In this document: positions 5,530-63,166 of the stretch, one piece after another
How positions within the stretch are numbered: position 1 is the first letter of the stretch
Layout of the letters: each line of letters begins with the position of its first letter
Assembly (NCBI GenBank): GCA_964016885.1
Contig: OZ024743.1
Location: 368,776,001-368,840,000, forward strand
DNA length: 64,000 bases
Direction: 5' to 3'
Source of the DNA: Eledone cirrhosa
Taxonomy: Eukaryota
The notes under the pieces: model-generated
Told to the model about the DNA's origin: nothing
Database searches by the model: none
What the model saw: the letters and a program-made list of their open reading frames with translations, nothing else
Translations under genes and position numbers: made by a program

Positions 5530-6025
5530 TCATCATAATCATCGTTTTTACATCAGTTGTTCCATGCTTGCATGGGTTGGATGGGTCCTTTCCAGTACAG
5601 CATCTCACCTCTTGTTGCATTCCTTCTTCATCTCTTCTGTAAGTCTTAGCGATTTAAGACCAGCTCTCACCACCTCTGTCCTAGTCTTTCTCAATCTACC
5701 TCTACAGTGGCTTCCTTCCACTGGTATTTCCTGGTACTTCTTCACCCAGTGATCACCATCCAAGTGCCTCACATGTCTATACCAATGCAGTCTTCTCTCC
5801 TACACACTGCTTCAGATTCCGCTTAAACCCAGCTTCTCCCTCAGCTCATCCAAGCTCTGTCTTTCTCCAACATTTACATTGCAGATCCAATGAAATATGG
5901 CTGCTTCATTTCTCTCTAGTCTACACATGTCCTCCACAGTCACAGCCCATGTATCACTACCATGCAGCATCACACTTCACACACAGGTGTCATACAGTCA
6001 TCCTTTTGTACATAGAGAGAATGAG
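5530..6025 (-). mobile_element. RTE LINE 3' fragment
   Basis: Minus strand resembles the RTE C-terminus at 7.2-8.0 kb and ends in catgcaagcatggaac...aaacgatgat. Confidence 0.7.
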
Positions 6026-44559: not shown

Positions 44560-47168
44560 GAAGGAAGTGTTACCCCCACCCAGTACATTTGGGATAAAAA
44601 CGAGAGGAAACAACAAAACAAGAAAGATCAGAGCCTTGGTGGAAGAAACAACTGAATGGTCAAATCAAGGAAATGAGAAAAGACATTGGAAAGCTTGAGT
44701 CTTTACTGAATGGGACATTACAAAACATAGACACTAAAGATAGATTGAAAATAAAATACAAAACTAAGGGAAAAGAGCTAAATGTTATCATAGAGGAGCT
44801 GAAGCAATGCATTGTAGCAAAAAGTGCAAAGATTAGGCGGTATGAGAACAGAGTTAGTCAGTATAGATAGAACTGCATGTTTGACAACAACCAGAAGATG
44901 TTATTTGAACAGCTTGAAGGGAAAGAAAGAGGTAATGACGTGATCCCTGAAGCGGAACAGATTAAGGCATTCTGGAGAGGAATATGGGAGCAAGATGTTG
45001 AACATAATAGTCAGGCAGTGTGGATTGATACAGTTCAAAAGGAGATTAGTGAACAAGCACACCAACAAACTGATTTGAGTATCACAGTTGAAACTCTTAA
45101 GGGGCAGGCCAAAGAACTAACCAACTGGAAATCACCAGGCTCAGATGGTGTGCAAGGATATTGGATAAAAAATATAACATCCCTCCACCCAAAACTGACA
45201 GCCATGTTTAATGACTGCTTGGTGTCAGGTGAAGTACCAGAGAGGTTGACAAAAGGTACCACAGTTCTGGTAATGAAAGACCGAATCAAGGGTAATGATG
45301 TTACCAACTATAGGCCTATCACATGTCTGTCCATAATGTGGAAACTGTTAACAAGCATTGTGTCTGAGGAAATCTACTATAACCTCCACATAAACAACTT
45401 ATTACCAGATAAACAGAAAGTATGCCGAAAGAAGTCCTGTGGCACAAAAAACCAGTTACTTATTGATAAGATGGTAATGAGGAATTGCAAGAGGAGGCAT
45501 ACTGGTCTTGCCATGGGATAGATAGATTACAAGATGGGAAGAGGAGAGCTTACCATCAACTACTGCCTCTTCATGGATGATCTAAAATTTTTTGGGAAAA
45601 GTGAGAGGGAGTTGGATGTACTTGTTAACACTGTCCGTATTTTCAGTAATGATATATGTATGGAATTTGGTGTTAATTCGTGTGGAGTCCTAGTGATGAG
45701 GAGGGGTAAATTGAACAGAAGCAACGGAGTCCAGGTACCAACAGGTGAGATGATAAAGGAAATTGACACTGAAGAGGGATACAAATATTTGGGTGTTATG
45801 GAGGCAGATGACATCAAGAACAAAACAATGAATGAATTGATTAGATCTGAGTACATTAGGAGAGTAAAGAACAAACTAAAATCACATCTAAATAGTAGGA
45901 ATGTCATAAGTGCAGTACATTCCCGAGCTGTGTCTATTATTAGGTACAATTTGGTTAACTATTATTAGGTTACAATGAGGTTAACTTTGCCTTTCATCCT
46001 TACGGGGTTGATAAAATAAAGTACCAGTAATGTACTGGGTATTTGCTGGCCTTGTGCCTAAAGTAGAAACAATTATTAGGTACAGTGCGGGAATTCTGAA
46101 ATGGAATGTTGCTGAACAAAAAGAAATGGATAGGAAGCTAATGACCACCTACATCATGTTCCACAAGAGGAGTGATGTTGATAGACTCTACTTAAAGAGA
46201 TCTTATCAGCATAGAGGACTGTGTTCAGGTGGAGAAAAACAATCTGCACATATATGTGTCTGACAGTAGGGAGCCAATGCTCAAAGTTGTACTGAAGAAG
46301 AAGACAATAGACCAGGGAAGAAATAACAACAAGGAGGAAGAGCAACCTTCATGAAAAATCCCTTCATAGCACCTTCTCTAAGAAAACAGAATTCAGAGAT
46401 GCACAGACATGGAACTGGTTGAAAAGAAGAGACCTTAAAAAAAGCTACAGAAGGAATGCTAATGGCTGCACAAGAGCAGGCCCTCAGAACGAAGTGGGTG
46501 AAACACCATATTGACAAGGAGGAGGCTAGCTTTCTGTGAAGGATCTGTGAAGAGAGAGGAGACCAAGGCTCACATTGTATCCGAGTGCAAACACCTAGCC
46601 AGACCCACTATAAAGGCTGGAGACATGATATGATAGGAAAGGTGATTTACTGGCATCTATGCAAACAAAACAATTTGCCACATTCTGAGAAGTAGTATGA
46701 GAATAAACCAGAGTTGGTGATAAAAAACGATCAAGTGAAGGTGCTATGAAATTTCAGGATACAGACGGACTAGAAATTAGAACACAATAGGTCTGACCTT
46801 GTGGTTTTTGACAAGGAAAAAAGATCATGCCTGATTGTAGATGTAGCCTGCCCATTAGACATGAGAGTGCAAGAAAAGGCGAACGAGAAAATTAAGCGAT
46901 ACCAGGATTTAAAGTGGGAGTTAAAAAAGATTTGGGACTGTCATGAGATCAAGGTCGTCCTGATTGTCGTAGGAGAACTAGGTACTATCTCGAAGAGTTT
47001 TCAAGAATGGTTAAAGAAGATTAGTCTAGCCCCGTTTTTTTGGAAACCTTCAAAAGGTATGCTTGCAAGAACCCTCCGATACGTCCTGAGTATCTGAGGC
47101 TGCAGGTAACGGCTAGATGTTCATTTGAACAAACTTTCCAGTTGAATAACATCAATGACTGAGACTCA

Positions 47169-47170
<2 letters not shown>
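44560..47170 (+). mobile_element. R4/Dong LINE (RT and REL, internal deletion), (TAA)n tail
   Basis: NWKSPGSDG, NYRPITCL, LFMDDLK, GYKYLG, AAQEQAL, HNRSDLVV..IVDVACP. Confidence 0.9.
45977..46078 (+). mobile_element. 5'-truncated SINE inserted in the Dong LINE
   Basis: TSD attattaggtaca at 45936-45948 and 46072-46084. Removing the insert restores AVSIIRYSAGILKW. Confidence 0.88.
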
Positions 47171-47213
<43 letters not shown>

Positions 47214-47214
<1 letters not shown>

Positions 47215-49782
47215 CTTTCTTGATTAACCACAAGGGTTTACATAAAGTAGACATTAAGGACAGTACAGGACAACACAGGACGGTACAAATGGGCATTTCT
47301 GCGTGTAAAAAAACAAAAACAGAGGATGTAACAAAAAAATAACAATGAAACATTCCCCAATAGGGGGAGACTTCCGAGGGACATTTGTGGAGAAAGCCCA
47401 TTAAAAGGCCACAGTAATCCTGACCACCAGGGCAAGTGCCCTCTCCCAGTTTTCCACCTTTAATTTACAGACACATACTCAGAGTAGGCCCAATCACTCG
47501 AGCCATACTTGCTTCTCTCACCCATCTTTCAACAAAATGCTGGGAAGAGAGCACTTCCCTCTCTACCCTGATTTTCCAATTTCATTTGAAATTGGAAAAA
47601 GTTAATCAGGGCATCACCGAAGAGGTAAGTGCTCGTCTTCAGCCCTTTCAAACGTGTCCACCATACTATCTCTTTCGCCATGGCCACCAGACAGATAAAA
47701 ACTGCCTGCCCTTCCCGGCTAAAGGAAGAGGGCGGGGAAATCCTCACGATGGACTCAGCTGATAGCTGGATCCGTCCAACACGTGACAGCAGGTGTTCGA
47801 CATAAACCCACAAGTCAGCAATGCTCGGACACTGGACGAGTGCGTGCAGGACGGTTTCGTCGCCCTGCGCGCATCTCGGACATGCCCGGCTGACGGCACC
47901 TCCATGCCTGTAGAGTTTATCCCGAACTGGCAAGGCTCCTCGGTAGCACTGCCAGGCCAGGGATTTCTGGAAGTTGTCCATAGGCCCCGGCCCGAAAGTT
48001 CTTCCGAAAAGATTGGCTAGTTGATTTTCGTCGACGCCTAGAGTTTCTCCAAGTACGTCGTCGCTCTTCCCCTCCACTAATCCTCTATAGAACGCCAAGG
48101 TGGAGTTTCCACCGATCACATTGCCCGATTGGTCGAGGGCTGTGAGCGCCTGAAGACATTCCAGTCTCCAGGCGCTCCCTCTCGGTCTTCGCTTGACCCA
48201 GGACTGCAGCTCCGTCAAGGAGCGAGCTGAGGAAGAGGTGGAGATGTCGGAGCCTGAGCGCGTGTCTGCGCATCATCAGCCACGGCATGCCCAGCCCTCC
48301 ACGTAGCGGGTGTTGACAGCAGATGGACTGCCTGACCATCGGAGTGCGCCCCTTCCACAAAAAGCGAAAGAGCAAACGCCCCAGCGCAGTCAGGCGGGGC
48401 TTAGGACAAGGTAGGGCGGTCAGGTGGTAGGAGATGACGGACGCGATGTACGCGATAGCCACCTCCTCTCGGCCCATTTCTGGGTGAGAGAAGCCACCCT
48501 GCTCGTCACCTCGTCCCAGTTTTTGTCCGTCTGGAGGTCTGGACCGAAACAGACCCCTAGCAATTTAACCGGTCCGTCCAGCGCCCGACGACGCCGTTGG
48601 ACGGCATGGACCTGCCTCTCCAGGTGCCGAGCTGCAGGCCCACTGACTTTTCCTGGTTGATCATTGCTCCTGTCACCGCTTCGTATTCTCTTAGTGTATT
48701 GCCGATCGCTTCGATATGCTTGGCGTTCGACACCACTATGGTGACATCGTCCGCATATGCTGACACGGATCTTCCGCATCCTAGTTCGCGCGGGATCCCT
48801 CTCAACATCTCCAGTTTGTGCAGTAATGGCTCGAGTGTCAATACGTACAAGAGGGACGAGAGGGGACATCCTTGGCGGACCGAGTGCATGATGTTGAACA
48901 GTTCCGAAAGGTGACCGTTCACTATCACCACAGAGCAGATGTCGCTGTGCATGGCAGCAATCCAGCCTCTGAAGACGGGCCCAAAGCCAGCCGCCCTCAG
49001 GACTGCCGCTAGATAACGATGGTCGACCCTATCGAAAGCTTTCGACTGATCTAAATTGATCAAGGACCCACCCGTACCAGGTCCCTAGCTACCCTCTCCA
49101 CGATGTATCGCATGAGGTGGAGGTTGTCGTGGATGGATCTGTCGGGAATGGCGCATGTCTGCGCCTCTCCTACCAGACCACCAACGACTAGCGCCAACCT
49201 CTTTGCTAGCACCTTAGCCAAAATCTTGAACTCAGTGTTTAGAAGAGTTATGGGCCTGAAATTATCTATGTTATCCCCCTTGTTCGGATCCTTTTTCAGC
49301 AGCGCCACTGCTCCTCGGGTCACAGAGCTGGGAATTCTCCCGCTCTGTTGCCAGTTGCAGTAGACGTCCGCCAAGAGGCCTCCGAACAAGTCTTGCATCT
49401 GTACGTAAAGTTCATAGGGCAGACCATCCAAACCAGGCGATTTACCCCTTGTGCAGCCAGTCATTGCCTCCCGTACTTCAGTGGCTGTTATCGGCTTTTC
49501 GCAACACTCCGCCTCAGTGGCCGAGAGCCGCGGCAGTCCGTCGAGGTAGACACTAAAGTCCATCCCTCGATCCGGCCCTCCGCTGCCCCCGAAGTGTCGT
49601 TGAAAAGCTTCACACATTTGCCCGGGATCGAGTAGTATGCGCCCGTCGTGCTCCACCAAAGACCGGATCGTGGCTTTGTTGCCACGACGCGCCTCCGCCA
49701 CTTGGGCTCATTGAACGGCTTTCGTCCCTTCGTGTCTGAGAGGACGCACCCTAGCTCTGACAACGCAGCCTTCGTGCTTTGC
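47214..49782 (-). mobile_element. Relatively young 5'-truncated Tx1-clade LINE (RT, C-terminal zinc finger, 3'UTR)
   Basis: KSPGLDG, NFRPITLLNTEFKILAKVLAKRL, LDQSKAFDRVDH, VRQGCPLS, AYADD, CPRC..ETVLHALVQC. CpG-rich. (TAA)n on both sides. Confidence 0.95.
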
Positions 49783-49783
49783 A

Positions 49784-49839
<56 letters not shown>

Positions 49840-49840
49840 T

Positions 49841-51255
49841 AACGAGAAGAAAGGTTGTTACCGGGGGTCTTACGAATGCAAAAACCAATTTCTCATTAAC
49901 TGCATGATTATGGAAGACTGTCATAAAAAGTATAAAAATCTGAGTACTGCTTGGATTGACTATACGAAAGTGTTTAACAGTGTTCCCCACACATGGATTT
50001 TGAAAACTTTGGATGTTCTGAAGATTTCTCCAGTAATATCAAACTTCTTGAAATACAACATGTCTATATGGAATAGAAACCTATCATTGTCACACAGTGA
50101 TGGAATTATAAATTCCAACAGCAAAAGTATTAACTGTGTATTTTTCAGGGGGATTCGTTTTCTCTTCTGATATTTTACATTGCACTCAGACCACTGTCTC
50201 TCCCACTCAACAAAAAATAATATAGCTACAAAATAGACAGCAAAACCATAAATCACCTGTTTTATATGGATGAACTGTAGCTATATGCCAAAAATGACAA
50301 CGGATTGTAAGAACTATGAAGATAGTTATGGTGTTCAGTAATGATGTGGGGGGAAAATTTGCCAAAGCAAAATTCAGGAAAAGCAGAATGACAAACTTAA
50401 TGGAAATAGATGTGGATACAGTAATTAGGGAACAAGCCTACAGATGTCTAGGGACCAATAAAGGCCAAGATATTCACCATGCCAGTATGAAAGAGAGAAT
50501 CAGGAAGGAATGTTTCCAGAGAGTACATGCTGTCATGAAAACAGAACTTAACTCTTGAAATAAATTATCTTCCATAAATGTGCTTGTATCCTGTTGTTAC
50601 CTACAATATCATGAATTGGAATGTTAAAGAAATTAAGAGAATGGATACCAAAATCAGGAAACTTTTGACCTGTAATAGAATACATCACCCAAATGCAGAT
50701 GTGTATTGCCTCTATCTCCCAAGATAAAATGGAGGTAGAGGAATGATCCAGCTAGAGCTTTCATACAGGATATCAACCATTGGACTCAATCAGTAACTTA
50801 AAACCACAGATGACTGGATTATGAAAATGGTCGCAGTTCATGAAAGGAGGAAGAGGTTACATTCAGTCACAAAGTAAAGTAGGAAGTTTGCGGAAGAACT
50901 GGGAATACAGTTTAAAAATAATAATGGCGACGCTGCAATTAAAGCTGCAAGTAATATCAAAGTGTTGGCAAAATATGAAGGCCAATGGAGACTGTGCACT
51001 AAATGGGAGCAAAAAACCACTGCATGGGCAGTATATTGTCCATAGCAAAGAACCTGATGTAGATCAAGCTTTCACCCATCAGTGGCTGTGGAGTATTGGG
51101 CTAAAGGCAGAGAGTGAAAGCTTTATTTTGGCTGCACAAGACCAGTGTCTCTCAACATGCAGCTTTCAAGCCAATGTGATCAGAAATGGAACTGACCAAA
51201 AGTGTTGATTCTGTGATGAACATGTTGAGACCATAGACCACCTGGTTTCACTAAT
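49841..51255 (+). mobile_element. R4/Dong LINE RT fragment
   Basis: AWIDYTKVFNSVPH, HLFYMD, LHGQY, ILAAQDQ, KC..C..ETIDHL. Confidence 0.85.
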
Positions 51256-54160: not shown

Positions 54161-54544
54161 TGTTGTTGTTGTTGTTGTTGTTCTTGTTGCTGTTGTTATT
54201 GTTGTTGCTGTTGTTCTTATTTTTGTTATTAACCAAGATTCATTTCTCTTTTCCTTCTCTCTTTCTCTATTTCTTCCTTCCCCCCCTCTCTCTCTTTATT
54301 CCCTTTGTTTTCTCTCTCGTTTCTTTCTCTGTCTAATTTGTCTGGACTCCTATATTATGTCTTTAAAAGAACCCCATCATCACCACCACAACTAGCTCAA
54401 CACCCCTTCTCCAAAAAGCCACCAAGTATGTTTGTTTTTAAACAGACATCAGATGAGATGAATTGATGGAGGGTTGAGTAGAAGAGTAATGACAGTCACT
54501 TACACAGGGTGATGGCTGGGGCAGTGGTTTCATACATCGGATGA

Positions 54545-55480
54545 TGGTAGTGCTGATGGTTGGGTAACAGTCTCATATACTGAGTGGTGGTGGGGGTGAG
54601 GGTGGGGTGGTCTTTTACATAGGATGATGGTGGTGATGGTTGGGTAACAGTCTCATATACTGAGTGGTGGAGGTGGTGGTCTTTTACATAGGATGATGGT
54701 TGTGGTGTTGGTGGTGATGGTTGGGTAACAGTCTCATATACTGAGTGGTGGAGGTGGAGGTCTTTTACATAGGATGATGGTTGTGGTGTTGGTGGTGATG
54801 GTTGGGTAACAGTCTCATATACTGAGTGGTGGAGGTGGTGGTCTTTTACATAGGATGATGGTTGTGGTGTTGGTGGTGATGGTTGGGTAACAGTCTCATA
54901 TACTGAGTGGTGGAGGTGGTGGTCTTTTACATAGGATGATGGTTGTGGTGTTGGTGGTGATGGTTGGGTAACAGTCTCATATACTGAGTGGTGGAGGTGG
55001 TGGTCTTTTACATAGGATGATGGTTGTGGTGTTGGTGGTGATGGTTGGGTAACAGTCTCATATACTGAGTGGTGGAGGTGGTGGTCTTTTACATAGGATG
55101 ATGGTTGTGGTGTTGGTGGTGATGGTTGGGTAACAGTCTCATATACTGAGTGGTGGAGGTGGTGGTCTTTTACATAGGATGATGGTTGTGGTGTTGGTGG
55201 TGATGGTTGGGTAACAGTCTCATATACTGAGTGGTGGAGGTGGTGGTCTTTTACATAGGATGATGGTTGTGGTGTTGGTGGTGATGGTTGGGTAACAGTC
55301 TCATATACTGAGTGGTGGAGGTGGTGGTCTTTTACATAGGATGATGGTTGTGGTGTTGGTGGTGATGGTTGGGTAACAGTCTCATATACTGAGTGGTGGA
55401 GGTGGAGGTCTTTTACATAGGATGATGGTTGTGGTGTTGGTGGTGATGGTTGGGTAACAGTCTCATATACTGAGTGGTGG
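54545..55480. repeat. 81-bp tandem array (10 full units plus 2 altered)
   Basis: Unit ggttgggtaacagtctcatatactgagtggtggaggtggtggtcttttacataggatgatggttgtggtgttggtggtgat. One minus-strand frame is open (27-aa period). Confidence 0.95.
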
Positions 55481-56116
55481 TGGTGGTGGTGGTGGTGGTG
55501 ATGGTAGTAATTAATGGTAGCATACAAAACATGATTCATAGTTCTTTTGTTGATCTCATTGTGTCATCTTTATCACACTACAGCACAAAAAACACTTACT
55601 TAGAAGTTTCTAAGCTTCTGTAGATGCAAGATGAAGAATTCTTTTCCAAATCTTCCTTCCGTTTTTCATCTGAGTAGGAAACAGACTCTTTACAAAATGG
55701 ATGCAGTGTCATGTTCAAATGGATAAACTTTTGTTGTTGTTATTGTTGTTTTCTTCTCCCCTCCTTCTCCTCCCCCTCTCTCTCTTTGCCCACCTCCACC
55801 AATATTCACTGTCCATTTTCATAAAAGTTTATACTCTTTTACTTTCTAACAATTCTATCTACCCTCGGCCCACACACCTACCTACCTATCAACTTATCTA
55901 CCCACCCCCTACCTATCTACCTACCTACTTACATGCCCACCCACTTACCTACCTAGCTACATAATCACCCACCCACCCACGTATCTACCTACCTACCTAG
56001 AAGCCCTCAACTCCTGCTAAAGTCATAGAGGTGTCATTGTCACATACTGTGTTGTATCTTGGGTATTTTAACTTAGCACAGCCCATTCCAGTTTCTTCCA
56101 GAAAAAAAAAAAGGAC

Positions 56117-57485: not shown

Positions 57486-58810
57486 TTAGTCATCAACTTT
57501 GTGAATCACCAATAAATTAGACTCACAGAGATCAGTAAATTCAAAATAATAGATAAAAAATCTAAATATTTTAATAAATACGATATTTATATTTTAAATT
57601 TTCTTCAGGTCTTTAAAAGGTTTTAGTTATAATTGAAAATAAAAATATCTACAAATCCAGAATCAGAAAAATGAGGATAAATGTAGCCCAAGTTGGGAAC
57701 TATTGTATTAGTTCAAGTTCTTATTTAAATTTCTCTATGTTCTCAAATCATATCAATAACGGTTTATTTGTTCCTTGACTTTACTTTACCTCCTAAATAA
57801 ATGCTCATGTTTCTAAATCTTGTTATAAAGACCTGTCTTAGCATTGATATTATAGTGTTAACTCTTAATGTCCTGTACCACATGAAACCTCATTAGCAAA
57901 ACATTGTTGTAAAATAAAATACTGGGCTATGACAGCATCACAAGTCTTTATTCTAATGCTGCATATTTTTTCAAGGATGTGTCTACTATAAACATGAATA
58001 CACTATAAACATTTGAATTAACAAACCCATTTTTTAAAACATGTTTTCTGTTAAATAATTACAGGATATTATAAATTAATCAGAAGAATGAAAATAGATA
58101 AATCTATCCTTAGATGAGATGCCAGACATTTTCAAGTATTATCCTCTAGAGATCTGCTAAATTTTTCTGACCAAATTTAAGAACATTGGGAGTACTTCAA
58201 TAACTTGCATTCCCAACCTCAGATCACTCAATGGTTTAAAAAAATAAAATGGGAATCCATTCAAGTTACTTACTAGATCATCCGTAAGATTGTACATTTG
58301 TTGGCATAAGGTAAGATAAGGAGCCCTTCACAGCTGATGGAGTCCTAGGGTGTTGTGCTAACATATCTTGAGCATTTTAAATCTGGGTGAGCCCATCGCT
58401 CTCCAGGTTAGAACACACATGATATTTTCCAGAGAAATAATGTTGCCGTTGATGTACAAAGAGGTGGGATGGTTATGGTTACTATACTTTTGATTATAGC
58501 TAACTAGCTATATATATATATGTATATATTATCATTATCATCATTTTTTAACATCTGCGCTTCCTACCTGCAAAAGTTGGATGGGTCTACATAGAGCAAG
58601 TCAACACTGAAGCTGGGGCTACTGACTTCCCAGACAAGCTGGGGGGGGGGGGGGGTCTGCATTGTGCTTAAGTATGGCTTTACACTCTATCGAGTGCCCA
58701 GTGGAAGTTGTCATATCTTTGGCATAACTGAAGGGTCCTCCCAATCCTTTGTTTGGCTAACTTTCTATGGTTGACTGCCCTACCCATCACCGTATGTATA
58801 TATATAAATA

Positions 58811-58868
<58 letters not shown>

Positions 58869-58958
58869 CAAAAAGTTATGAAACGAAAGGAGCTGTGTGG
58901 TTACTAAAAAAACGGTTTAGGGTTAGGACGGAACAGGAGGAGAAAGGAAGAAAGGAGT

Positions 58959-59022
58959 TTCAATCGTCAGCTGTAAATGTTACCCGAACCGATGTTTCGG
59001 CGCTGAATTACAGGACATCGGT
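58959..59022 (-). ncRNA. Candidate non-circularly permuted hammerhead ribozyme
   Basis: RNA: ACCGAU-GUC-CUGUAA-UUCAG-CGCC-GAAA-CAUCGGU-UCGGGUAACAU-UUACAG-CUGACGA-UUGAA. Stem III is 8 bp, stem I is 6 bp, and a possible stem II is 5 bp. Confidence 0.6.
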
Positions 59023-59746
59023 GGAGTTCGGGTGCACCCGAGGTCTTTTATTGGTGCTGGATTACAGGACATCGGTGTAGTTCGGGTGCACCCGAGGCCT
59101 TTTATTGGTGCTGGATTACAGGACATCGGTGTAGTCCGGGTGCACCCGAGGCCTTTTATTGGTGCTGGATTACAGGACATCGGTGTAGTCCGGATGCACC
59201 CGAGGCCTTTTATTGGTACTGAATTACAGGACATCGGTGTAGTTCGGGTGTGCCCGAGGTCTTTTATTGGTGCTGAATTACAGGACATCGGTGTAGTTCG
59301 GGTGTGCCTGAGGCCTTTTATTGGTGCTGAATTACAGGACATCGGTGTAGTCCGGGTGTGCCTGAGGCCTTTTATTGGTGCTGAATTACAGGACATCGGT
59401 GTAGTTCGGGTGTGCCTGAGGCCTTTTATTGGTGCTGAATTACAGGACATCGGTGTAGTTCGGGTGTGCCTGAGGCCTTTTATTGGTGCTGAATTACAGG
59501 ACATCGGTGTAGTTCGGGTGTGCCTGAGGCCTTTTATTGGTGCTGAATTACAGGACATCGGTGTAGTTCGGGTGTGCCTGAGGCCTTTTATTGGTGCTGA
59601 ATTACAGGACATCGGTGTAGTCCGGGTGTGCCTGAGGCCTTTTATTGGTGCTGAATTACAGGACATCGGTGTAGTTCGGGTGTGCCTGAGGCCTTTTATT
59701 GGTGCTGAATTACAGGACATCGGTGTAGTTCGGGTGCGCCCGAGGT
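58999..59746. repeat. 54-bp tandem array, 14 units
   Basis: Unit ggtgctgaattacaggacatcggtgtagttcgggtgtgcctgaggccttttatt, giving an 18-aa period in ORFs on both strands. Confidence 0.97.
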
Positions 59747-59748
59747 CG

Positions 59749-60930: not shown

Positions 60931-61970
60931 ACCAGTATTTTTTTCTTCCCCCTGGTAAAATGGTGTACATTATTCGATTTTTTCAGTAAAATCGGTTCTC
61001 TTAATAGAACATCAAAAATCTTAACAATAAAAGGTGTGAAATGATATTCACTATATATATATATATATACACACACATACATATATTCACTACATATATA
61101 TATATATATATACATATATACATACATATATATGCACATATATTTTTTTGTATTGCACCATAGAGCATGTGTGTTTACGTGTGTCATTGTGTTTATATGT
61201 GGGTAGAGATGTGTGCTGATGTAGGTATGTATGTTGACGTGTGTATGTTGTGGGTTCGTCTTAGGGAGAAGTGTTTAGACGGGGTCCGTATTTGTTAATG
61301 AAGTAAGATTCCTTGCTGATGCGCTGGGTGTGGGTGGCATTATCTTTAAATTTGTAGAGGGGAAAGATTCTGAAGTTGGGATGATTTTGGGCGGCACAGG
61401 TATCAATGTGTTCACTCAGTGGTATTTTCCTGTATTCCCGTATTTTAATTTGGGATCTATGGACAGTCATGCGTTGGCGGAGGCTGTTTTTGGTCTGGCC
61501 TATGTATTGTTCTCGACAACCTGAACAAGTTAATACATATATTAGATTTTCCGATGCACATGTGAAATTGTGTTTTACTATAAAACGTTGTCCATCTTTG
61601 AAATAGAATTCCGAACCCTCTATTAGGTTGATGCAAATGCCACAGTTGGGTCTATCGCATTTTTTTACTGTGGGTTTCGTTGTTGTGGTTGGCAGTACTT
61701 TGGCATGTGTTAAGATGTTTTTCATTGACTTGGATTGTCTTTTGCTCTTTATGATATCGTGTGTTCGTAGAATTTGGTTCATTCTATGGTCCTTTTTCAA
61801 TACAGGGATGTTCTGGAGGATGGTGTCAAAGGCCTCATTGTTGAGGGGGTTGTGTGTGGAGATGTATGGAAGAGCTTTTAGTTTTGGTTGATTTACTTTA
61901 GGGTGTCTAAGGTCCTGGGTACTGAGTTTTAGGGCACGTTGGATTCCATTGTCAATTAGTGATGCAGGGT
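60049..61970 (-). mobile_element. Penelope-like element, left (minus) arm: linker, GIY-YIG endonuclease and long 3' region ending at (TA)n
   Basis: Reverse complement of 62324-64000 over 60272-61970. The extension to about 60049 is inferred from the (TA)n boundary. Confidence 0.85.
61261..61800 (-). CDS. PLE GIY-YIG endonuclease domain with Cys-rich linker (partial ORF; Neptune/Nematis/Naiad-type architecture)
   Basis: KCDRPNCGIC...FTCASENLIYVLTCSGCREQYIGQTKNSLRQRMTVHR...EH...ESYFINKYGPRLN. Uninterrupted. Confidence 0.85.
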   Translation of the reverse strand: MKKDHRMNQILRTHDIIKSKRQSKSMKNILTHAKVLPTTTTKPTVKKCDRPNCGICINLIEGSEFYFKDGQRFIVKHNFTCASENLIYVLTCSGCREQYIGQTKNSLRQRMTVHRSQIKIREYRKIPLSEHIDTCAAQNHPNFRIFPLYKFKDNATHTQRISKESYFINKYGPRLNTSP

Positions 61971-62044
61971 GTTGAGCCCATTTATAAGGGTGTGAAATTC
62001 TTTAAGTTTTTCGATGTTTTCGTGCCAAAGGATGAAGCAGTCAT
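61971..62044 (-). mobile_element. Inverted PLE RT motif-C fragment
   Basis: Minus strand encodes DCFILWHENIEKLKEFHTLINGLN, which normally precedes TNINFTME. Confidence 0.8.
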
Positions 62045-62049
62045 ATATT

Positions 62050-63166
62050 AACACAAATATTAACTTCACGATGGAATACAGCCATCAACAACTCCCCTTC
62101 CTCGACATCTTCATTAAGATCCATAACAAAAAAATAGAAACAGACATATACTACAAGCCCACAGACTCCAAGCAATACCTCCCCTTCAACTCTTGCCACC
62201 CTAGACACGTTAAAATTAATATTCCCTACAACTTAGCCAAGAGAATCTGTACTATAGTCTCCAATAAAAACATCTGCTACTTACGGCTACAAGAACTAAA
62301 GGACACACTCATAGGCAGGGACTACCCTGCATCACTAATTGACAATGGAATCCAACGTGCCCTAAAACTCAGTACCCAGGATCTTAGACACCCTAAAGTA
62401 AATCAACCAAAACTAAAAGCTCTTCCATACATCTCCACACACAACCCCTCAACAATGAGGCCTTTGACACCATCCTCCAGAACATCCCTGTATTGAAAAA
62501 GGACCATAGAATGAACCAAATTCTACGAACACACGATATCATAAAGAGCAAAAGACAATCCAAGTCAATGAAAAACATCTTAACACATGCCAAAGTACTG
62601 CCAACCACAACAACGAAACCCACAGTAAAAAAAATGCGATAGACCCAACTGTGGCATTTGCACAGAGGGTTCGGAATTCTATTTCAAAGATGGACAACGT
62701 TTTATAGTAAAACACAATTTCACATGTGCATCGGAAAATTTAATATATGTATTAACTTGTTCAGGTTGTCGAGAACAATACATAGGCCAGACCAAAATCA
62801 GCGTCCGCCAACGCATGACTGTCCATAGATCCCAAATTAAAATACGGGAATACAGGAAAATACCACTGAGTGAACACATTGATACCTGTGCCGCCCAAAA
62901 TCATCCCAACTTCAGAATCTTTCCCCTCTACAAATTTAAAGATAATGCCACCCACACCCAGCGCATCAGCAAGGAATCTTACTTCATTAACAAATACGGA
63001 CCCCGTCTAAACACTTCTCCCTAAGACGAACCCACAACATACACACGTCAACATACATACCTACATCAGTACACATCTCTACCCACATATAAACACAATG
63101 ACACACGTAAACACACATGCTCTATGGTGCAATACAAAAAAATATATGTGCATATATATGTATTTA

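Follow-up and report, generated by a model that had tools for sequence, protein, structure and literature searches.

The 64,000-nucleotide stretch of Eledone cirrhosa DNA considered here (the window) raises the question of why a tandem array of hammerhead cleavage-site strands adjoins a single catalytic core, and whether, as the original prediction proposed, that one core serves the many sites as an enzyme serves its substrates. TRF delimits a 54-bp minisatellite of 13.8 copies with 96% matches at 59002–59745, read on the minus strand. Each of its 14 units contains an identical 16-nt segment (stem III arm, triplet and stem I arm), the spacing between successive segments is 54 nt in all 13 intervals, and GAAA-CAUCGGU and UUACAG-CUGACGA follow only the last unit, at the 3' end of the minus strand. 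Unit spacing and alignment thus confirm the predicted arrangement of 14 tandem units that carry the same site strand upstream of a single terminal GAAA/CUGACGA. The unit is a duplicate of the stretch from AAUAAAAG through the CC immediately 5' of GAAA, and it comprises a distal stem III arm, the proximal stem III arm, GUC, the stem I arm and the CC of stem II; the substrate strand predicted for every unit is complete, distal arm included. The duplication junction nearest the core (59045–59066, minus strand) breaks between 59053 and 59052, at a point common to five loci in the genome, and the 5' end of the window copy falls within a unit. The single-copy element has an 8-bp hairpin upstream, in whose loop the duplication breaks.

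Two other readings of the array were rejected. The units carry diagnostic letter differences, which argues against an assembly artefact, and a 76-nt contig crosses a junction with no differences (the run may represent the assembly's own sample). A coding repeat would account for two frames that are open through the array, but these are open because 54 is a multiple of three, and nothing further supports coding. In one unit variant, seen at 59029–59042 (minus strand) and in units 11–13, GGGUGCACCC creates a perfect palindrome of 14 nt. This palindrome is able to fold into a hairpin or to dimerize, in competition with the distal arm of stem III. Elsewhere in the window, an 81-bp tandem repeat on the element's strand (54496–55563, minus) has an open frame of 355 amino acids with His/Pro/Thr-rich units and could represent either a coding exon or a simple minisatellite, and several decayed LINE reverse-transcriptase fragments lie on both strands at 44871–50170.

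The end of the array has the hammerhead anatomy that had been predicted: CUGANGA, GAAA, a cleavage triplet and stems I and III. Along the minus strand, block S (59007–59022; 7-bp stem III 5' arm, GUC and 6-bp stem I 5' arm) is followed by block G (58988–59000; CC as the stem II 3' arm, GAAA and the stem III 3' arm) and then by block C (58962–58976; stem I 3' arm, CUGACGA at 58970–58964, an extra nucleotide at 58963 and position 10.1 at 58962). In the terminal unit, the 5' arm of the distal stem III (59026–59032, minus strand) pairs with 58983–58989. The canonical types I, II and III have a cyclic C-G-S order with nested stems, a description that this S-G-C motif does not fit. CGS, GSC and SCG are the canonical orders. 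Eckert et al. (2023) described type-SGC hammerheads (HRIMA-1 and variants), a non-circular permutation, and showed them to cleave (PMC10085705); by analogy, the window motif is predicted to be cut between 59014 and 59013. A scanner for all six block orders gave one match on both strands of the window, which is the array's terminal motif (SGC, stem I of 6 bp, stem III of 7 bp), and no match at a comparable threshold in 6.2 Mb of Markov-resampled DNA. The enzyme/substrate split seen in the original prediction is the ordinary SGC layout, and every single-unit copy has it.

Rfam at its gathering score gives no match in the 64-kb window. The SGC copies in L012, L086, L105, L106 and L107 likewise have no Rfam match, while a canonical type I hammerhead in L067 does score. 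The best nested fold of the terminal region from ViennaRNA is a different hairpin, nested folding being unable to represent the pseudoknots and crossing stems of the SGC motif. A type I/III reading by way of a second GAAAC past the core was rejected on inspection, as it provides no stem II and at most two stem III pairs. A separate canonical type I hammerhead is found at 5644–5688 (minus strand) of locus L067, with an Rfam RF00163 score of 31.7 bits (gathering score 34). The window copy has U at position 10.1 where the family has G; the family letter stands in this place in all 45 covering contigs per run. The G10.1-C11.1 pair of stem II is absent from the window copy, in which only a 2-nt insertion would allow one G-C pair. 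To judge from the loss of G10.1, the ribozyme of this copy is probably weak or dead, a claim that we soften because some Naiad 3' ends (see below) have no stem II either.

The fold was evaluated across the family with an alignment of 65 natural sequences, 63 from the same genome and two from metagenomes. CUGANGA, GAAA and an NUH triplet are present in all 65, although the letters of the core and the proximal stems were set by the search patterns and their conservation is partly built in. Thirteen named pairs, a count that omits stem I pairs 5 and 6 on account of gap placement, form in 93.4% of cells compared with 27–46% when slid. Double changes occupy 38 cells, a value that none of 500 shuffles reached, though in these 65 sequences they represent few subfamily events; the number of pairs with double changes is two, which is no excess (498 of 500 shuffles as high). 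Pairing is found in 97% of stem I cells and 92% of stem III cells. Stem I pair 5, formed in 63 of the 65 sequences, occurs as A-U (four subfamilies), as U-A (a fifth) and as C-G (the metagenome pair). At stem III pair 6, which 20 of 65 sequences leave unpaired, C-G changes to A-U. A helix of varying sequence recurs distally. Stem II consists of two G-C pairs (the first formed in 60/65 and the second in 56/65) with no third pair and no double change. The full SGC test was passed by 22 of 30 BLAST-collected loci. It is likely, at a high level of confidence, that the family carries a real type-SGC hammerhead, for which cleavage is predicted.

The motif might instead be a hammerhead-shaped relic, or a structural signal for binding of a protein or reverse transcriptase, that no longer cuts itself. 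A stem II of 2 bp would suit such a role, and a reading by eye gives several Naiad 3' ends a stem I and a stem III without stem II. A hammerhead of a Penelope-like element (PLE) cut only in the presence of its protein, with insertion in vitro proceeding without cutting (PMC11167929), and metazoan PLE hammerheads are described as slow (PMC4209133). However, families that are unrelated in sequence share all catalytic letters and stems I and III, arranged in one order, and natural SGC and CSG RNAs do cleave (PMC10085705). We therefore regard a motif that has ceased to cut as improbable and treat the family's motif as a predicted ribozyme.

The array belongs to a 5'-truncated copy (58869–59747, minus strand) of a non-coding Penelope-like repeat family that ends at (TA)n. 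The 3' region of the element with its optional ~40-nt tail occupies 58869–58961 (minus strand), copies stopping at two preferred places, and the 3' junction of the insertion has a (TA)n tract (58793–58868). In the host assembly, which is chromosome-scale, 3.0 Gb in size and rich in microsatellites, a DNA search with the window element returned at least 171 matches from the best 40 of 773 candidates. Exact patterns gave 295 near-family copies and 277 sister-subfamily matches, two sets that overlap slightly, with no matches for the reversed-pattern controls. The monomer is ~620–820 bp long and pyrimidine-rich. Head-to-tail tandems of ~800 bp occur in L014, L021 and L026, head-to-tail spacings among the genome-wide pattern matches are 618–819 bp, and inverted neighbouring copies are also present, e.g. 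in L065. Among 65 ribozyme-bearing rows, (TA)n is reached 32–61 nt past the core in 12, 74–111 nt past it in 37 and later in two, and is absent within 260 nt in 14. The strict family pattern had no matches in metagenomes and a looser one had two; there were none to the family patterns in viral and prokaryote contigs, and a search of viral contigs for related loci gave one trivial 10-residue match with no ribozyme.

Partial tandems, inverted copies, an optional tail and microsatellite targets are traits of PLE derivatives, and the family has all of them; an optional tail of 30–40 bp, which the two end classes before (TA)n match, is described for Penelope-like elements (PMC11167929; PMC8557442). 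No ORF could be linked to the family in the monomer and flanks examined, where an ORF of the Naiad kind, with GIY-YIG at its N-terminus and RT at its C-terminus, was also not found. PLE fragments near family copies are set apart from them by (TA)n or other repeats, and searches beside family copies turned up no autonomous partner. A frameshifted Penelope-like fragment with a C-terminal GIY-YIG domain (Pfam E 6e-7) lies 1.5 kb from the array at 61261–62496 (minus strand), with no hammerhead seen when 500 nt surrounding its 3' end were read. On balance we favor a Penelope-like element as the mobilizing partner. An RLE-type LINE is a less probable candidate. No 3' end is shared with a LINE beyond a 29-nt ribozyme match to L105, and none of 12 LINE regions from the same genome matches the 3' end or body of the family.

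The genome-wide distribution of the array bears directly on its origin. The junction pattern occurs 127 times, and all 127 occurrences fall within five loci and share one breakpoint, with 13 (window), 87, 17, 9 and 1 junctions and 14 (window), 100, 20, 10 and 2 sites, respectively. Because two of the loci, both on C24, have some 3' flank in common, these represent at least four independent array insertions. A T-to-C change beside the junction is present in the units of all five array loci and in none of 24 single copies examined, which suggests from sequence that the duplication likely arose once and then spread. In the arrays of 100 and 20 sites, two stem III pairs are broken, one as an A-C and one as a G-G mismatch, and the site blocks are mutated, with six variant alleles inside them. 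Unit variants of 58 and 53 bp also occur in the 100-site array (L061; G000:C24:17230500-17240499), as do higher-order duplications of ~1 kb. A double change from G-C to A-U leaves the distal helix of L061 paired, although its proximal stem III is broken.

According to the original prediction, the single G plus C module could cut any upstream unit and release 54-nt monomers or circles; as a maintained system, it would cut the units in turn and the array would be kept for this purpose. Several observations are in keeping with such a system: the 5' strand, with its distal arm, is complete in every unit, the duplication breaks exactly before GAAA, looping out one unit would cost ~2 kcal/mol by a log-loop estimate, and in cofolding a free unit strand takes both arms. 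The 13 internal units of the window array vary in 9 of 54 columns, none of them inside the 16-nt segment (hypergeometric P = 0.03; 0.05 without CpG columns), so the prediction that substitutions fall outside the segment holds for this array. It fails in the sister arrays, where the invariance is not kept. Over all arrays, 6 variant alleles lie in the 16 columns of the site block and 31 in the other 38 (p = 0.049), although intact blocks were favored when units were called, but counting columns that vary in any array gives 6/16 and 18/38 (Fisher p = 0.56), and single copies lean the same way, with 3 differences in 16 columns compared with 19 in 38 (9 of which are one polymorphism). Furthermore, the 3' product of a terminal cut is predicted to hold stem I closed, with a probability of ~0.55. 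When other copies were checked for arrays, the same breakpoint was found in the five loci, but at least 295 family copies are single, which speaks against a maintained one-enzyme/many-substrate system. Such a system is made unlikely, and in our estimate very much so, because stem III is damaged in the longest arrays and the window copy has lost G10.1 and with it the G10.1-C11.1 pair. An intact copy may cut upstream units incidentally; selection for this is not indicated.

The alternative that the original prediction itself offered, an array that is a by-product, agrees with the restriction to five loci and with the damaged stem III of the longest arrays, and we consider it most likely, with considerable confidence. 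A by-product could have formed during retrotransposition, by repeated jumps of the reverse transcriptase or by rolling around a 54-nt circle cut between site blocks. The window copy does begin inside a unit, all five array loci are copies of the element, and unit numbers range widely (2, 10, 14, 20 and 100). However, the junction is not at the cleavage site, the largest arrays derive from copies with damaged stem III, and variants that lie in blocks together with ~1-kb higher-order duplications are what DNA-level turnover is expected to produce. Retrotransposition thus seems a rather unlikely source of the arrays, though a single template jump is possible for the first duplication, and DNA-level minisatellite turnover fits better than a cassette system. 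Taken as a whole, our preferred reading, held with reasonable confidence, is a passive minisatellite in a PLE-like retroelement whose 3' region holds a predicted SGC ribozyme.

Comparison with known systems places this predicted ribozyme among the type-SGC hammerheads. The family and the RNAs of Eckert et al. share the site-GAAA-CUGANGA order, the double-pseudoknot core, all core letters and covarying stems I and III (PMC10085705). The published SGC sequences are metatranscriptomic, with none described from genomes of known organisms other than one weak GCS candidate, and the CSG type rests on two metagenome sequences, whereas the window family has hundreds of genomic copies in an animal retroelement. 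It also differs in its 2-bp stem II, one additional nucleotide past A9, a stem III that extends distally and a 9-nt link from stem I to GAAA (7 nt plus CC), which is typically 3 nt in the SGC RNAs; the extra stem I–II helix of the latter was not identified in the family, in which the distal stem III extension was seen. Type I hammerheads of PLEs (Cervera and de la Pena 2014; PMC4209133) likewise lie near the end of a PLE-like repeat and have an additional nucleotide, lying between position 9 and position 10.1, and a G10.1-C11.1 pair. Their order is C-G-S, helix II is long and helix III nearly absent, and they need dimers, whereas the window family has the mirror order, a 2-bp helix II and a helix III of 5–7 bp that can form in a monomer. 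Non-LTR animal retrozymes, proposed to be PLE derivatives, are also non-coding tandem monomers with one ribozyme each (PMC7229834; bioRxiv 10.64898/2026.07.22.740005), but every retrozyme repeat has a type I hammerhead, whereas the ~800-bp monomer of the window family has the SGC motif. Since retrozymes are defined by type I hammerheads, the family would work like a retrozyme without being a member of that group. The 54-bp unit has no catalytic core and does not qualify as a retrozyme.

A homologous motif is associated with LINEs. The looser family pattern identified two metagenome contigs, L105 and L106, in which an SGC motif (404–457 and 118–171, respectively) lies ~230–240 nt past the stop of a retrotransposon ORF and, in L105, also before the next ORF. 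These are the closest sequence relatives of the window family's ribozyme (25 of 29 nt). In both, the distal stem has 7–8 bp, and a 5-bp helix may close the motif. The protein nearest to their ORF, P0001 (89%), has Ulp1 protease and RT domains, and we take these LINEs to have a C-terminal restriction-like endonuclease (RLE) and to belong to a HERO/NeSL-like clade. The Eledone genome contains 146 matches to relatives of this LINE, and in seven of 12 fetched regions a second SGC motif of unrelated sequence lies just past the LINE ORF. This motif had no match in 6.2 Mb of resampled DNA, its pattern has 14 exact matches genome-wide with none for the control, and six aligned motifs show 96.7% pairing with three doubly changed pairs. 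Several of 25 LINE loci in this genome have a different 3' UTR without the motif. The second family is seen in L145 (1501–1558; G000:C2:317451000) and L107–L143, in the 3' UTR of RLE-type LINEs. In L132, a LINE tandem has the motif between units, further variants occur in L116/L141 and L120, and L154 (1450–1680) has two such regions ~100 bp apart with no ORF match, the upstream one degenerate. RLE-type LINEs resemble the ~800-bp family in having an SGC ribozyme between tandem units (L105/L106) and, in several copies of this genome, ends at (TA)n, but LINE copies in this genome have no 3' end or body in common with it.

The LINE-type pattern passed the structure test in none of four matches from viral contigs and in two of 22 from prokaryote-genome contigs. 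The latter two, in bacterial MAG contigs (L165, 1501–1559; L172, 964–1022), have compensatory distal stems and adjoining CCCTAA-like runs, no LINE protein match was found in either contig, and they are possibly stray eukaryotic DNA.

Naiads are PLEs for which Craig et al. (2021) found no canonical hammerhead, reporting only core or half-core motifs and flagging eight 'half cores' (PMC8557442). We read by eye, with no control, the last 420–600 nt of 26 of the 54 consensus entries in File S5, with entry names inferred from the next header and the file order. Fourteen of the 26 could be read by eye as SGC or CSG, and ten of these have three stems: CSG in Parc, Nbra-2, Nbra-3, Hcon, Hpol and Ptep, and SGC in Obim, Ovul, Smim and Sdum, the last with a U3-A8 core variant. 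In Esco, Movir-2, Lpol and Dst-4, a stem I and a stem III in the SGC order can be read by eye, with no stem II, and 12 of the 26 show no clear motif. Seven of the eight entries flagged by Craig et al. are among the 14, several of which were not flagged. Naiads and the window family are alike in (TA)n insertion, the tail, tandem or inverted copies and, by eye, SGC or CSG 3' ends, but Naiads encode GIY-YIG and RT whereas the family has no ORF. A search of the Eledone genome for Naiad-type 3' ends gave no match, and no sequence link was found between the window family and a Naiad.

A mechanism can be proposed from these features. In transcripts through tandem copies, the ribozyme would fold as soon as block C has been transcribed and then cut at GUC|CUG, releasing ~800-nt monomers that are perhaps circularized. 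The partner's reverse transcriptase would prime at (TA)n and begin some 50 or 95 nt 3' of the core. A single copy would have gained the 54-bp duplication and moved to at least four independent sites, where the array would have expanded by DNA slippage or unequal exchange. In an array transcript, the nearest site would be favored for cutting.

The chief result of this analysis is the ribozyme, and the 14-unit array is of modest interest. In the literature searched, mainly titles and abstracts, there is no report of SGC or CSG hammerheads in retrotransposons. We think it probable on the whole that these are common, overlooked ribozymes of animal retrotransposons, comprising the 'missing' ribozymes of Naiads, those in the 3' UTRs of RLE-type LINEs and those that drive non-coding SGC retrozymes such as the window family; the array would then be a construct made by nature, in which a single catalytic half adjoins 14 substrate strands. 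If so, a whole hammerhead topology has been missed by standard descriptors and Rfam, and SGC and CSG hammerheads, earlier environmental with no host known, would gain a biological setting in many copies in animal genomes. This would add a hammerhead to the 3' UTRs of RLE LINEs. It would also revise the statement that Naiads have no hammerheads and spread without them, giving Naiads ribozymes across nematodes, spiders, cephalopods and more, and a scrambled block order would explain why one group of retrotransposons seemed ribozyme-free.
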